From positions 1 to 24,000 of the forward strand of contig CBDUXN010000001.1 in NCBI GenBank assembly GCA_965371185.1: a stretch of DNA of 24,000 nucleotides, read 5' to 3'. The position numbers and the translations under genes are program-made. Every line of letters starts with the position of its first letter. The stretch's first letter is position 1. Positions 3,553 to 24,000 of the stretch are shown in pieces. The notes below the pieces were generated by a model. It did not search any database. It saw only the letters and a list, made by a program, of their open reading frames with translations, and was not told the origin of the DNA. This stretch comes from an uncultured Thermoplasmata archaeon. GTDB taxonomy: Archaea; Thermoplasmatota; Thermoplasmata; GCA-020350865.

Positions 3553-3740
3553 GGTTGTTGCCTCCTTAGCCCGCTAAGAACGAGCTTCTAATAAAGTTTA
3601 TGGTCAGCTGAGCGGATGTAGGCTTAAAGGCTTCTCTGGAGCATAAAAAACGATAAAATGCCTTTTTAAAACGATGTCCAATCTTTTATTACGAATTAGA
3701 TGTCATATATCGTCATAAAAATATCGCTATGCGTAGTAGA

Positions 3741-18830: not shown

Positions 18831-20710
18831 GTTCCCACCTCCTCCAAGGCCGCGATGGCTTCAGCGGTGAGCTGCTCGTCCGTGTAATGTGTCATGGATA
18901 TCGCCTTCTCTGGGCAGATGGAGCCGCAGGTCCCGCAGCCCTTACATGCCGCCACGATGGTCTCAGCTATGCCTTCTTCATCGAATTGGATCGCTCCATA
19001 TGGACAGACCTTTTCACATGATCTACACCCCGAGCATCGCTCCCTGTCCACCTGGGAAACGATGGCCTCTGCCTGAACATAACCCTTACCCATAGGTATA
19101 GAGGCATGAGAGGCTGCGCCGTATGCCTGAGCCACTGTCTCGTTGATGTTTGCTGGGCCGTGAGCTGTGCCGCACAGGAATATACCATCCGTTGCAAAAT
19201 CCACGGGGCGGAGCTTGACATGGGCCTCCAAGAAGAAACCGTCCCTACCCAAAGGAACCTTGAGCAGCTTTGACAGCTCCACTGCTCCAGGCCTCTGGGT
19301 AAGAGGTGTTGCCAACACTATCAGATCAGGCTGCATCCTCCTATCAGCCTTCAACGTTTCGTGGTAGTAGGATATCGTGAGCTTTCCGTCCTCCATCGTA
19401 ACTTTCGGCGGGTTCTCGGGAACGAAGCGTGTGAACTTAACCCTTTTTTCTCTGGACTTATTGTATAAAAGCTCTTGCTCTACCCCGTAAGTTGTTATTC
19501 CCCTGTTGAATACGGTAACCTCCACACCACCCCTTTCTTTCGGTCTTTCTTCGCCTCTCTCAACTCCCCGCCTTCTCGTGGGTCTCCTCGCCCTTCTGTC
19601 CCTTCTGCTCCTTCTTCCTGATGCTCTTTGCTCCTCTGGTTCCTCCGCTGCCTCCTCCTTTCCTTCCTCGGCTTGTTCCTCCTCCCCATTTTCATCCCCC
19701 TTTGCCTCAGCGGCACCTGATGCCATTTCCATGAGCTTCATGGCGTTTTTCACGGTTACAGTGCAGCAGATCCTCGAGCAGTACTCCTTGTCCTGACCCC
19801 TCGAGCCCGCACATGTGATAAACGCAACGTTCTTTAGGTCCGAGGGGAGCTTATCCTCCCTGGCCATTTCCTCGAAATCAGTTAATGTTATAACGTTATC
19901 GAACTCTCCCAATCCGTACAGGCCTTTTGGCCTGTGTTCCTCAGCACCTGTAGCCACTATGATCGTGCCTACACCTATCTCCTTATCCTCGCCATTGACG
20001 TCAAGAACTGCATCGTATTTGCCGATGTATCCCTTTAAAAATTTCAGATTTGTATTCGTGTACAAATGGATTTTTTCATTTGCTTTCACCTTTTCAATCA
20101 GGGGTTCTACGACTTTGTTACCGCTCTCCCCTGTTTGGTAGAGGGTGTTCAGCTTCTTGATAAAGCCGCCAAGCTCAGGCTCCCTCTCGATCAAATGGGT
20201 TTCGAAACCTTGGTTTGCCAGGTTGAGGGCAGCGGTCATACCAGCCACTCCACCTCCCAACACAAGAGAAGATGGCCTGACATCTATTTTCACTTCCTCC
20301 TGCGGTTCGAGAAGTGTGGCCCGAGCGACACCCATTCTTATCAGATCCTTGGCCTTTTCAGAGGCTCTCTCCTTCTCCTTCATGTGCACCCATGAGCAGT
20401 GCTCCCTGATGTTCACGAAGGTGAACAGGTATTTGTTCAACCCGGCCTCTTCGCAAATTCTCATGAAAAGCGGTGCGTGGGTACGGGGTGTGCATGATGC
20501 CACGATCACCCTGTTGAGGTTGTGCTCCTTTATGGCGTTCTTAATCGCCGTTAACCCGTCATCAGCGCAAGTGTAGAGGTTATTCTCGGCATGAACCACA
20601 TTGGGCAATGTCCTTGCATAATCCGCAACGGTTGGCACATCGACGAAGCCGCCGATGTTCACCCCACAGTGGCAGACGAACACACCGATTCTTAGCGTTT
20701 CCTGTTCCAT
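18827..20710 (-). CDS. hdrA: HdrA-like flavoprotein, C-terminal-half type (627 aa): N-terminal Cys domain + FAD domain + C-terminal ferredoxin, with a charged low-complexity insert
   Basis: GVFVCHCGVNIGG..ASCTPRTH..CSWVH, LGGGVAGMTAALNLANQG, CAGSRGQDKEYCSRICC, FLEAHVKLRPVD, CSGCRSCEKVCP, CKGCGTCGSICP. It is collinear with the second half of the fused copies. ATG shares one nt with the upstream stop (TGATG 20708-20712), with GGTGGTGA SD. Confidence 0.88.
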   Translation of the reverse strand: MEQETLRIGVFVCHCGVNIGGFVDVPTVADYARTLPNVVHAENNLYTCADDGLTAIKNAIKEHNLNRVIVASCTPRTHAPLFMRICEEAGLNKYLFTFVNIREHCSWVHMKEKERASEKAKDLIRMGVARATLLEPQEEVKIDVRPSSLVLGGGVAGMTAALNLANQGFETHLIEREPELGGFIKKLNTLYQTGESGNKVVEPLIEKVKANEKIHLYTNTNLKFLKGYIGKYDAVLDVNGEDKEIGVGTIIVATGAEEHRPKGLYGLGEFDNVITLTDFEEMAREDKLPSDLKNVAFITCAGSRGQDKEYCSRICCTVTVKNAMKLMEMASGAAEAKGDENGEEEQAEEGKEEAAEEPEEQRASGRRSRRDRRARRPTRRRGVERGEERPKERGGVEVTVFNRGITTYGVEQELLYNKSREKRVKFTRFVPENPPKVTMEDGKLTISYYHETLKADRRMQPDLIVLATPLTQRPGAVELSKLLKVPLGRDGFFLEAHVKLRPVDFATDGIFLCGTAHGPANINETVAQAYGAASHASIPMGKGYVQAEAIVSQVDRERCSGCRSCEKVCPYGAIQFDEEGIAETIVAACKGCGTCGSICPEKAISMTHYTDEQLTAEAIAALEEVGT

Positions 20711-22011
20711 CAGCTCACCACCTTGGTTGTAAGGAGCTCCGCAGCCCTCGCAGCGGCACCGCTCGCCTGGGTTACAGCCTCAGGAATATCCATGGGCTCA
20801 TGACAGTAACCAGCCAGATAAATTCCAGGCCGCTTGGTGTCAACTGGGTTCAGCAGCTTGTCCACAGATTCGTAGAAGCCGAACTCATCCACGTCGATTC
20901 CAAGAAGCTCTGCCAGTTCTTTGGCACCCTTCCTGGGCATGAGCGTTGTCGCCAGAACCACCATGTCAACCTCCATCTTCTCCTGTCTACCAGCCACATC
21001 ATATATTACAATGGGGTTATGGTTGTCGGGATTCTCATCCACGGTGGCGTCTGAGTTGATGTATGTGATACCGTAATCGCTCTTTCCCCTCTCCACGTAC
21101 TCGTTGAAACCCTTGCCGAAGGTCCTCAAATCCTTATAAAAGATGAACGATTCCATGTCATCGTGATGCTCCCTTGCCAATATCGCCTCCTTCGTAGAGT
21201 GCATGCAGCAAACACTGCAGCAGTACGGACGGTCCAACTGTGGATTCCTCGAACCAACGCACTGTATGAACCCGATTTTCTTGGGCCTTTCGCCGTCGGA
21301 ACGTCTCTGTATATGTCCGCCTGTTGGTCCTGAGGCGTTGATCAGGCGCTCGAATTCCATGGATATAAAGACATTGGGAATCTTACCGTAGCCGTATTCT
21401 TTTGCACTGGTTGGGTCCCAAACATCGAATCCCGTGGCAACGATGATCGCAGCCACGTTCAACTTCACCTCCTCGGGGCCCTTATCGAATTCTATTGCGC
21501 CGATTTTACACAGCTTCTCGCACACCCTGCACTTGCCCTTCGTGAAGAATATGCAGTTCTCCTCGTCTATGGTCATGACCCTTGGAACGGCCTGTAAGAA
21601 TGGTAAATAGATGGCCTTTCTCATGCCCAAATTCATATCGAATTCATTTGGGACCTTGACTGGACATTTTGCGTTACAGTCACCGCAACCAGTGCATACA
21701 TCCTCCTTTACATGCCTGGCCTTTCTCAGCACCTTCACCTCATATTTTCCTGCCTCACCTTCTATGCCTTTAACCTCAGAATAGGTCATGACCTTGATGT
21801 TTTCGTGGCCAAAACAATCTGCCATCTTCGGGGCAAGTATGCAGATGGAGCAATCGTTCGTGGGAAAGGTCTTGTCCAGTTGAGCCATTCTTCCCCCGAT
21901 GCTCGTTTCCCTTTCCACGAGATAGACCTGCATACCTTTATCAGCCAAATCCAAAGAGGCCTGGATCCCTGCGATGCCTCCGCCTATGACCAAAACGCTT
22001 TTGTCTTCCAT
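20710..22011 (-). CDS. hdrA: HdrA-like flavoprotein, N-terminal-half type (433 aa, QmoA-like size/architecture)
   Basis: VIGGGIAGIQASLDLADKG, DKTFPTNDCSICILAPK, CTGCGDCNAKCP, CIFFTKGKCRVCEKLC, CVGSRNPQLDRPYCCSVCC. It is collinear with the first half of the fused copies and ends where their inter-half linker begins. It is the first gene after a 194-nt intergenic region. Confidence 0.88.
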   Translation of the reverse strand: MEDKSVLVIGGGIAGIQASLDLADKGMQVYLVERETSIGGRMAQLDKTFPTNDCSICILAPKMADCFGHENIKVMTYSEVKGIEGEAGKYEVKVLRKARHVKEDVCTGCGDCNAKCPVKVPNEFDMNLGMRKAIYLPFLQAVPRVMTIDEENCIFFTKGKCRVCEKLCKIGAIEFDKGPEEVKLNVAAIIVATGFDVWDPTSAKEYGYGKIPNVFISMEFERLINASGPTGGHIQRRSDGERPKKIGFIQCVGSRNPQLDRPYCCSVCCMHSTKEAILAREHHDDMESFIFYKDLRTFGKGFNEYVERGKSDYGITYINSDATVDENPDNHNPIVIYDVAGRQEKMEVDMVVLATTLMPRKGAKELAELLGIDVDEFGFYESVDKLLNPVDTKRPGIYLAGYCHEPMDIPEAVTQASGAAARAAELLTTKVVS

Positions 22012-22084
22012 TTTATGCCCCCATTAACTTTGAAGGAAACGATACTTTACTCCCCTCATTTGAAGGTTTTAAGGCAATCCTGAA

Positions 22085-22125
22085 TTGTTTTTTAATGATA
22101 AATAGTTTATGACGATATATGGCAC
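22085..22125 (-). promoter_or_regulatory. Candidate promoter region of the hdrA/mvhD array (TATA-like runs)
   Basis: The minus strand reads ccatatatcgtcataaactatttatcattaaaaaac, ~75-115 nt upstream of ATG 22011. It is the only strongly AT-rich TATA-like stretch in the 194-nt spacer. No TSS data are available. Confidence 0.25.
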
Positions 22126-22205
22126 TTTTCAGATTGTTTTCGGCAATATAACCCTGGAATTTGGCAGGTTTCGACGTAGGTAACCCAGGTTCAATCGGCC
22201 TCAAA

Positions 22206-22763
22206 TCATATGTTCAGGTCATATTTGAGTTTATTTATAGCGATTTCTATATCCTCGATATGTTTTGCACCGGTACAAACGACTTTCCCGGTTTGGAAAA
22301 GCAACAACACCGTCTTAGGCTCATCAATTCGGTACACCAGACCTGGAAATTGCTCTGGTTCGTATTCTACATTCTCCAGGCCCAGGCTTACCGCAACATC
22401 AATTAGGTTCAACCTCACACCCAAATCGCATGTTGCCACGATGTTCTGAATAGTGATATTCGGATTTTTATTCACCTTGAAGTTCGCATCTCCAAGTATT
22501 TTGACAAGGGTTTCTATGCTTCGATCGACATTTTCTATATCCTTCCCGCCCGTGCACACGACTTGTCCACTTTTAAACAGGAGCAACGTGGTTCCCAGCT
22601 CCCTTAAACGAAAGACGAGCCCTGGAAATATCGCGGGATCATATTCTGTCCCATTCATCATCCGGTGAATAAGCTTTAGATCGAGATTCTCGGCAACAGG
22701 CGTCGTAGCAACGAGATTTTGTATTTTTATATTATTCATGTTAACATCTACCATAACAGTCAA
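22206..22763 (-). CDS. tbp: TATA-box-binding protein, paralogue B (divergent)
   Basis: Two TBP repeats: NIKIQNLVATT..YDPAIFPGLVFRL..LLLFKSGQVVCTGGK and ITIQNIVATCDLG..YEPEQFPGLVYRI..LLLFQTGKVVCTGAK. The track start is TTG 22763 (TTGA-type overlap with the upstream TBP stop, no SD). ATG 22754 or ATG 22739 are alternatives. Confidence 0.9.
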   Translation of the reverse strand: MTVMVDVNMNNIKIQNLVATTPVAENLDLKLIHRMMNGTEYDPAIFPGLVFRLRELGTTLLLFKSGQVVCTGGKDIENVDRSIETLVKILGDANFKVNKNPNITIQNIVATCDLGVRLNLIDVAVSLGLENVEYEPEQFPGLVYRIDEPKTVLLLFQTGKVVCTGAKHIEDIEIAINKLKYDLNI

Positions 22764-23308
22764 TGTAGTAGGCCTGCAGCTTTCAACTCCTTTTTGAGCG
22801 CTTCCACAGTTAGGTCCAAGTCCTCTGCTCGCTTCGCACCGGTCAATACGACCTTCCCGGACCCGAAAAGCAATGTTACCACTTTCGGGTTGCTGAAGCG
22901 GTATACCAGGCCGGGGAACTGCTCAGGCTCGTATTCAACCCCTTCCAAACCGAGGGTCACTGCGATTGCCGTCAGATTCAACTCGTGACCTAGGTCATAG
23001 ACAGCAACCATGTTTTGAATCTTTATTTCTGGGTTCTTAATTATTGGGATACCGGCCTTATCTAGTAGATTTATCACAATATTGATGGATTTTCGAACGT
23101 CATCCATACTTTTTCCACCGGTACAGTTGACCTTTCCGCTTCTAAAGAGCAACAGTGCGGTCTTCGGCTCCTTTATCCTGAAAATAAGGCCGGGAAATTG
23201 TTCAGGCTCGTACTCTGCACCCTCTAGGGCCATAGCAATCGCGGTCAAATCGAGACTATCTGCAATTTGCGTTGATGCAACGATATTCTCAACCTTTGCT
23301 TTTGTCAT
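22760..23308 (-). CDS. tbp: TATA-box-binding protein, paralogue A
   Basis: Two TBP repeats: KVENIVASTQI..YEPEQFPGLIFRI..LLLFRSGKVNCTGGK and IKIQNMVAVYDLG..YEPEQFPGLVYRF..TLLFGSGKVVLTGAK. 182 aa, the canonical archaeal TBP size. Confidence 0.92.
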   Translation of the reverse strand: MTKAKVENIVASTQIADSLDLTAIAMALEGAEYEPEQFPGLIFRIKEPKTALLLFRSGKVNCTGGKSMDDVRKSINIVINLLDKAGIPIIKNPEIKIQNMVAVYDLGHELNLTAIAVTLGLEGVEYEPEQFPGLVYRFSNPKVVTLLFGSGKVVLTGAKRAEDLDLTVEALKKELKAAGLLH

Positions 23309-23352
23309 TTGGAGGTTACATAATTTCGACAGTGAAATACGTTTTGAGAAAG

Positions 23353-23360
23353 CTTTATAG
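23353..23360 (-). promoter_or_regulatory. Candidate TATA box for the TBP pair
   Basis: The minus strand reads ccactataaagctttc, 45-52 nt upstream of ATG 23308. There is no SD before the ATG (the upstream sequence reads ..aacctccaaATG). Confidence 0.3.
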
Positions 23361-23448
23361 TGGAGTAACTTAAAGTCGAAGAAAACTCGACAAATTGCGG
23401 GGAAGAGGAAAGCTCATCAGCATAACGATAAACATTTTTGTTACGATC

Positions 23449-24000
23449 TTATCTCAATCTGTTAAGAGTATCCATTCCCCTCCTTCTCTTTCTTTCGGCG
23501 AATTCTATCAGTTTATCGAGCCTTGTTGCTAGATCAACATGTGTGCCCTCTTCACGATCATCGAGTTCTTCTATGTAACCATGACGAATTGCTTCCGAGT
23601 AGATCGCCTCTCCGACATCAGTCCTGATTACCAAAGTTGTCCATCCTTCTGGCGAACCGAGACCTCCAAAGGAGATGTCCGCAAAGTCGTTGGAATAATC
23701 CGTGCATGCAAGGCAGGCTAGGCGAACGAATTCGTTCATTTTTTCCAAAGAGATGTGTCTCGTCTCTCCGTCTTTGAGCATGATGATGAAATTCTCCCTC
23801 AAATTCATTTTTTCGATATCATCCAAATTAACACCTAACACCTTCTCAACATCCTCTCTTTTCGAGGCATCGAAGGAAAAATTCTCTGCACAGAAGAGCC
23901 CGAGAACGAATTTTACCACATGTGAAGGAACAACGCTGAGGCTCTGCATCTTTCTGAGGGTGTGTACCTGACATGGAGTGCCCACAACTGCGATCCTTAT
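23449..24000 (-). CDS. FrhB/FdhB-family protein (F420-interacting FAD/Fe-S subunit family), 5'-partial at window edge
   Basis: The frame stays open to nt 24000 (..IRIAVV precedes the GTG used by the track). Family signatures present: VGTPCQVHTLRK, GLFCAENF, CLACTDYSNDFADISFGGLG. Confidence 0.8.
   Translation of the reverse strand: MRIAVVGTPCQVHTLRKMQSLSVVPSHVVKFVLGLFCAENFSFDASKREDVEKVLGVNLDDIEKMNLRENFIIMLKDGETRHISLEKMNEFVRLACLACTDYSNDFADISFGGLGSPEGWTTLVIRTDVGEAIYSEAIRHGYIEELDDREEGTHVDLATRLDKLIEFAERKRRRGMDTLNRLR

Follow-up and report, generated by a model that had tools for sequence, protein, structure and literature searches.

Why would an archaeon keep two tandem genes for a TATA-box-binding protein (TBP), placed in the middle of an array of redox genes? 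The question is raised by the first 24 kb (hereafter the window, 24,000 nucleotides (nt)) of the 56-kb contig C1 (CBDUXN010000001.1) of a metagenome-assembled genome from an uncultured Thermoplasmata archaeon (GCA_965371185.1, here G000; 3.6 Mb, completeness 92%, contamination 4%), whose genus also includes a closed chromosome of 5.16 Mb (CP070751.1). A preliminary description of this DNA proposed that the pair could provide an alternative basal factor for condition-specific expression or could simply be a recent tandem duplicate. Based on gene counts, phylogeny, and alignments, the two genes, here referred to as A and B, are probably functional accessory TBPs in a Methanosarcina-like set-up, in which several TBPs are combined with one transcription factor B (TFB). 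The two genes are as follows:

22760 to 23308, minus strand: TBP paralogue A, 182 amino acids (aa), ATG start, stop codon included; a member of the A-type clade of Thermoplasmata.
22206 to 22754, minus strand: TBP paralogue B, with a most likely length of 182 aa (start at ATG 22754); a member of a genus-limited, fast-evolving clade with a diverged N-terminal repeat.

Both open reading frames are present, complete and head-to-tail, where the preliminary description placed them, and each contains two PF00352 repeats. The flanks are also as described, with an FrhB_FdhB_C gene upstream and HdrA-like and MvhD genes downstream after a gap of 194 nt. Only the start of B has to be revised: the stop of A had been said to overlap a TTG start at 22763, which would give the longest open reading frame (22206-22763, minus strand, 185 aa). 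On L150, a 48.9-kb JGI metagenome contig with the same gene pair, no in-frame TTG is present at the overlap position, but the ATG 9 nt downstream is kept together with the peptide MVDV.MNNIK. For this reason B most likely starts at ATG 22754, encodes 182 aa, and follows the stop of A after a 5-nt spacer.

The genome-wide count agrees with the earlier view that A and B are additional TBPs rather than housekeeping ones. Besides A and B, G000 carries a TBP gene on each of the contigs C78 and C63, four in all, and one TFB gene with two cyclin repeats; the closed congener genomes G001 and G004 also have one TFB each. In trees of 67-93 TBPs, four clades are resolved within the genus. The copy on C78 clusters, at 93% identity, with single copies from three of the four congeners (the canonical-TBP candidate of G001 aligned only in part and was not placed in the tree) and is presumably the canonical, housekeeping TBP, while the C63 copy pairs with a copy from G003 at 85% identity. 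Contamination or chimeric assembly was considered as the source of the extra genes and rejected, as all four clades occur in congeners, the GC content of the contigs is typical of the genome, and the A-B arrangement is found in two other assemblies. The statement that most archaea have one TBP overstates the rarity of such expansions: at least two full TBP genes are present in 16 of the 40 relatives sampled from the class, and adjacent or near-adjacent pairs recur (e.g., in G015, G027, G071, and G299). Multiple TBPs are common in Thermoplasmata, with G000 at the top of the range, since four copies were counted in only one other relative. A literature search returned no paper on TBP multiplicity in Thermoplasmata, and a comparative-genomics paper on Methanomassiliicoccales does not mention TBP.

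A "multiple TBP, single TFB" configuration has been described for Methanosarcina by Blombach and Grohmann (PMC5501381). As far as it is summarized there, Methanosarcina acetivorans has one TFB alongside TBP1, TBP2, and TBP3 (Reichlen et al. 2010, cited in PMC5501381). On that summary, the two systems have in common several TBPs with one TFB, one highly conserved copy beside divergent and patchily distributed ones, and the two-repeat saddle. They differ in that the present case concerns Thermoplasmata, independent paralogue clades, four copies, and a tight pair in a redox array. Halobacterium salinarum NRC-1, with its TbpA-F / TfbA-G network (PMC2121645, PMC3261711), likewise has an expanded TBP family with accessory copies; however, in Halobacteria TFB is expanded as well and specific TBP-TFB pairs are used, whereas this genus has a single TFB. 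The locus is a new example of the known multi-TBP, single-TFB set-up, in an unusual location.

If A and B are accessory factors, where did they come from? The preliminary description considered a recent tandem duplication in this lineage followed by subfunctionalisation, which would readily explain why the two genes are adjacent, co-oriented, and 53% identical (94 identities over 176 residues without gaps, close to the earlier estimate of roughly one half). However, each protein has closer relatives elsewhere. B falls into a clade (support 100/99) with single copies of G001 and G004 and several metagenome contigs, with identities of 69-86%, and this B clade is found in at least eight assemblies. 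A falls into the A-type clade (ten rows, support 95/89), which extends over five families of the class; identity is 69-77% to the nearest outside relatives and 87% to the orthologue of A on L150 (P0123). The identity of B to its orthologues in G001 and G004 (70-71%) and that of A to copies from other families (69-70%) both exceed the identity between A and B. When an exclusive A+B clade, orthologues included, is forced, this costs 40.7 log-likelihood units and is rejected by the approximately unbiased (AU) test (p = 0.00036). Recent tandem duplication is thereby excluded, barring a bad distortion of the tree by rate differences, and the probability left for it is close to negligible. By their placement, A and B are older, separate paralogues from different clades.

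The pairing itself may have a longer history. In G015, which belongs to another family, two adjacent TBP genes separated by 12 nt (L115:8031-9209) adjoin purA, with no hdr genes nearby; the upstream gene is A-like and the downstream gene B-like. The downstream copy joins a B super-clade with L048 (95/85), while the upstream copy joins the A-type clade weakly (74/47). This is suggestive only of an old A-B pairing across families. An ancient, conserved A-B tandem was considered as well and is not established, given the weak placement of the upstream G015 copy and pairwise identities that are not decisive.

Some TBP genes with unusual repeat numbers were encountered in the same set of sequences. 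A half TBP stands alone in a closed congener (L020, G001:C1:1589663-1589872); it has one repeat in an open frame of 115 aa, is 58% identical to residues 94-164 of B, and may be a remnant or a single-repeat gene. Four TBPs from metagenome contigs (P0004, P0122, P0124, and P0125) have ~270-280 aa and three repeats rather than two. In P0122, P0124, and P0125 the additional repeat duplicates another exactly or nearly so, which could reflect an assembly artefact or a very recent duplication, while the repeat copies of P0004 differ from each other.

Are both proteins still able to act as TBPs? The Pfam family PF00352 matches two repeats in each (E 1.1e-57 for A, 5.9e-56 for B), and all ten NCBIfam TATA-box-binding-protein models match both. 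The only cut-off passed is that of the broad subfamily model NF001593 (cut-off 181; A 209.4 bits, B 189.7 bits); equivalog cut-offs are reached by neither protein, e.g., A scores 270.8 and B 231.7 with NF001598 (cut-off 330). B aligns over its full length to the structurally characterised archaeal TBPs of M. jannaschii (2Z8U), S. acidocaldarius (1MP9), and P. woesei (1PCZ/1AIS/1D3U), with E values of 2.5e-48 to 3.9e-41. With these proteins it shares its length, repeat structure, and the C-terminal stirrup EYEPEQFPG; it differs from them in an N-terminal stirrup that lacks both acidic residues and in a changed EPK turn.

The elements FPGL and LLF..GK, which had been reported for both paralogues, are confirmed by alignment in all four repeats. 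Moreover, A and the whole B clade keep the four intercalating phenylalanines, the strand-1 Asn/Val positions, the arginines of FRL/YRI, and the LLF..GK strands, so that B has not lost its DNA-contact residues. The roles of the Phe and strand-1 Asn/Val positions in kinking and contacting DNA are assumed here from yeast and archaeal TBP-DNA structures. The repeat-2 motif YEPEQFPGLVYR is also kept, and the second repeat is nearly invariant across the B clade (VEYEPEQFPGLVYRI.EP.TV.LLFQ.GKV.CTGAK). Its stirrup, EYEPEQF, is identical in A, B, the canonical copy, and every B-clade member; we take this stirrup, by way of the equivalents of yeast E186/E188/L189, to be the one that contacts TF(II)B.

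The first repeat of B, in contrast, had already been singled out as the most divergent part, and it is indeed the weakest match to PF00352 (81.8 bits versus 97.6-107.8 for the other three repeats). A and B share 44% of residues across the N-terminal repeat, compared to 62% across the C-terminal one. Both acidic residues of the first stirrup are gone throughout the B clade, with DPAI, NPKT, or NPVI in place of EPEQ. In the same repeat, ELG or DLK replaces EPK (Pro-to-Leu and Lys-to-Gly in B), and SGQ or RGR replaces SGK (Lys-to-Gln in B). The AAGLLH tail of A and the canonical copy is missing from the clade. Among congeners, B-clade proteins are ~70% identical, compared to 93% for the canonical TBP, which indicates that B evolves several times faster than the canonical copy, mostly in lobe 1.

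Such changes, common to the whole of a clade that diverges so much faster than the canonical TBP, would also be expected if B were a non-productive decoy that titrates TFB or blocks promoters through its altered first lobe. Against this stand the four phenylalanines and other saddle positions, all of which are kept, and the ratio of non-synonymous to synonymous substitution rates (dN/dS) of the N-terminal repeat of B, which is 0.10. First-stirrup variation is also seen in characterised TBPs such as that of P. woesei (KYNPEEF), and because of this any functional meaning of the first-lobe changes of B is put forward conditionally. Altogether, a decoy role is considered very improbable. Relative to the L150 orthologues, dN/dS (NG86) is 0.17 for A and 0.12 for B, with values of 0.10-0.21 per repeat, and both genes are thus maintained by purifying selection.

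How the pair came to lie where it does can be approached from related genomes. Relative to congeners, the 140-nt region upstream of A, A itself, and B together form an extra segment of ~1.26 kb, here referred to as the cassette, with the following surroundings:

23449 to 24000, minus strand: 3' part of an frhB-like gene (full gene at C1 23449-24585), the left flank of the cassette.
23309 to 23448, minus strand: 140-nt region 5' of A, part of the cassette, with two TATA-like elements.
22163 to 22205, minus strand: right-hand junction of the cassette, where the sequence again becomes homologous to the congeners' frhB-hdrA intergenic region.
20710 to 22011, minus strand: gene for an HdrA N-terminal half of 433 aa (hdrA433), the right flank of the cassette and first gene of the downstream array.

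Homology to the congeners is lost at the frhB stop (23449) and returns between 22190 and 22162, i.e., 15-45 nt after the B stop. In G001, G002, and G004, whose HdrA433 orthologues are 87-90% identical, no TBP gene is present at the frhB-hdrA433 junction; instead, the frhB stop is followed by ~45-210 nt, a conserved leader with a promoter block, and hdrA433. The arrangement is nevertheless genuine and common to a sub-lineage, because it recurs on two other contigs: L150, from an independent assembly, has the order FrhB-A-B-HdrA433 (A 87% and B 86% identical), and a short ENA contig shows the C-terminus of an A-type TBP abutting a B that is 85% identical. The segment can be regarded, from these comparisons, as a lineage-specific cassette. 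It may have been gained there or lost elsewhere; among the genomes compared, G001 and G004 are nearer to one another than either is to G000.

The absence of the cassette from the same site in three congeners would fit a laterally exchanged passenger, i.e., a set of redundant spare TBPs without a specific regulon, in an incidental position. Synonymous divergence points the same way. Between G000 and L150 (22206-23308 versus L150:9447-10549), A and B have identities of 0.70 and 0.59, respectively, at four-fold degenerate sites, compared to 0.29-0.47 for eight flanking genes of similar amino-acid identity; correspondingly, the synonymous divergence (dS) is 0.3-0.6 in the cassette and at least 1.0-2 in the flanks. 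Synonymous constraint as a general property of TBP genes is ruled out by the canonical TBP, which at four-fold sites (0.35-0.44 between congeners) is as saturated as other genes. The raised identity with L150 ends at the gene borders, and the 140-nt upstream region is ~76-80% identical. The two copies of the cassette thus seem to go back to a more recent common ancestor than their flanks do, as would be expected after lateral exchange between related lineages. Some haloarchaeal tbp genes reside on mobile replicons, which the cassette-like behaviour seen here echoes. However, no transposase, integrase, or other mobile-element genes and no terminal repeats were seen at the inspected junctions, both genes are under purifying selection, and B-clade members persist in eight or more assemblies. 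That A and B are mere passengers is rather unlikely.

If the pair does have a function, its surroundings may give a hint. The TBP genes lie inside the same-strand redox array and not at its edge, since more HdrA, MvhD, and CCG-domain genes are found upstream of frhB, beyond the window. On that side, and on the same strand, are genes for MvhD, HdrA, a CCG-domain HdrB/C-like protein, a 1204-aa HdrA-MvhD fusion, MvhD, and a 1117-aa HdrA; downstream of B are a split HdrA (433 + 627 aa), MvhD, and three units of a ~1000-aa HdrA plus MvhD. As an aside, the fusion gene (C1 28074-31688; L103:4074-7688) corresponds on L150 to three genes (HdrA of ~439 aa, HdrA of ~572 aa, and MvhD of ~143 aa) and looks like a lineage-specific gene fusion.

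B directly precedes hdrA433 in G000 and L150. In G004, the two assemblies behind L151/L152, and L153 (closed genome CP070672.1), where B is solitary, a same-strand Hdr-type cluster follows as well, in the order 335-aa protein (p335), HdrC-like, HdrB-like, CCG, split HdrA, MvhD, and second CCG. Overall, Hdr-type clusters adjoin co-oriented B-clade genes in six of eight sampled loci, in two gene orders; two further contigs, L154 (p145-B-p335) and L156 (A-B), are not long enough to reveal hdr genes. The G002 draft yielded no B gene, and no hdr genes were seen near the B-like copies outside the genus (L048 and G015). This adjacency supports a link between B and redox genes, as circumstantial evidence and not as proof.

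Two conserved proteins accompany the solitary B genes. A conserved protein of 145-150 aa (p145), 76% identical between G001 and G004, precedes B in most of these loci (L021:9542-9994, L022:9611-10051, L151:9528-9965). It has no Pfam match, and no homologue was found in the G000 assembly; the idea that it is a decayed copy of A was rejected, as it has no similarity to TBP and yet is conserved at 76% between G001 and G004. The p335 protein (~335 aa; L021:10574-11596, L151:10575-11582) likewise has no Pfam match and probably carries an N-terminal membrane segment.

A stronger version of the redox link is conceivable, in which B, alone or with A, is a dedicated, sigma-like basal factor that drives a specific regulon, namely the Hdr/MvhD array and the neighbouring Mvh-type hydrogenase operon. 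In addition to the co-oriented placement of B-clade genes beside Hdr-type clusters, two promoter-like features of the window bear on it:

22082 to 22134, minus strand: promoter-like block of the hdrA433 array, ATCTGAAAAGTGCCATATATCGTCATAAACTATTTATCATTAAAAAACAATTC, conserved in the five genomes compared.
3705 to 3719, plus strand: second genomic copy of the 15-mer ATATATCGTCATAAA, 89 nt upstream of the start codon of a NiFe-hydrogenase small subunit.

The 15-mer occurs exactly twice in the 3.6-Mb genome, and the hdrA433 and hydrogenase promoters thus share an element that is unique to both. The hdrA433 copy (22106-22120, minus strand) lies 109 nt upstream of the start and is conserved in four other genomes, and ~20 nt around the two copies are similar as well. 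ATATATCGTCATAAA may act as a control element common to both redox operons. Its use as a marker of a wider regulon was rejected, given that only two exact copies exist and near-matches fall outside promoter-like contexts.

The 53-nt block itself (22134-22082) lies upstream of the hdrA433 start, with two TATA-like stretches at a distance of 89-106 nt, and is conserved across the five genomes compared, whether the cassette is present or absent. The array would therefore have its own promoter downstream of B, and, given that the block is conserved where the cassette is missing, would need neither A nor B next to it. No oligo-T tract was seen between the B stop and the block, so that read-through from B is possible. 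A role of the pair in serving the downstream array is a possibility with circumstantial support. The block is conserved even where no TBP gene adjoins the array and in G002, the draft in which no B was found, which argues against a dedicated factor, as do the B gene of G001, which lies away from hdr genes, and the consideration that linkage in hdr-rich genomes may be inherited. Furthermore, no paralogue-specific TATA consensus motif has been established for any archaeal TBP (PMC5501381). For these reasons, a dedicated factor is considered unlikely. The most specific form of the idea, i.e., that the B-clade TBP is a specialised basal factor for Hdr operons which together with A forms a transferable cassette inserted beside the operons it serves, is regarded as quite improbable.

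In the reading favoured here, A and B are accessory TBPs working with the single TFB. Because only 5 nt separate the genes, A and B would be transcribed as one unit, from a promoter of their own; such a role is proposed for the 140-nt region upstream of A, whose TATA-like elements ACAAAAATGTTTATCG (~23442-23427) and CCACTATAAAGC (~23363-23352) are partly conserved in L150. Each protein would still bend TATA DNA and recruit TFB via the unchanged C-terminal stirrup, while the remodelled N-terminal lobe of B would alter the regulators or promoter contexts with which it works. The pair would accordingly shift transcription under some condition and, as B-clade genes repeatedly lie beside Hdr-type clusters, this condition may be related to redox or energy metabolism.

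Several observations weigh against this reading. In B, the lysine-to-glutamine and proline-to-leucine changes of lobe 1 could weaken DNA binding, and congeners that lack the cassette conserve the hdrA433 promoter block just as well. The link to redox genes is also less telling than it appears: G001 keeps p145-B with a helicase gene next to it and no hdr cluster near B, each genome contains ~30 HdrA-homologous segments, and the module beside the solitary B genes is homologous to part of the G000 array. The B-Hdr linkage may therefore be inherited synteny that was locally reshuffled, in which case the two arrangements are not independent. Although no other evidence speaks more strongly for a tie to redox metabolism, it is weak, given the relatedness of the loci, the number of HdrA segments, and the homology of the module to the G000 array.

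For the question of how transcription is divided in archaea with several TBPs and one TFB, this locus is a compact natural test case. It comprises a conserved canonical TBP, an old A-type copy, and a fast B-type copy in which the lobe that binds TFB is frozen while the other changes, and two promoters are candidate targets, that of hdrA433 and that of the hydrogenase, with a 15-mer present in both and nowhere else in the genome. The features most worth following are the one-sided divergence of the B clade with its Hdr linkage and the anomalous synonymous divergence of the cassette. Should the specialised, cassette-borne factor be true after all, it would amount to a sigma-factor-like, operon-linked TBP; to our knowledge, none has been shown for any archaeon. 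Lastly, if the cassette owes its low synonymous divergence to lateral exchange, the mobility of basal transcription factors would be greater than usually assumed.

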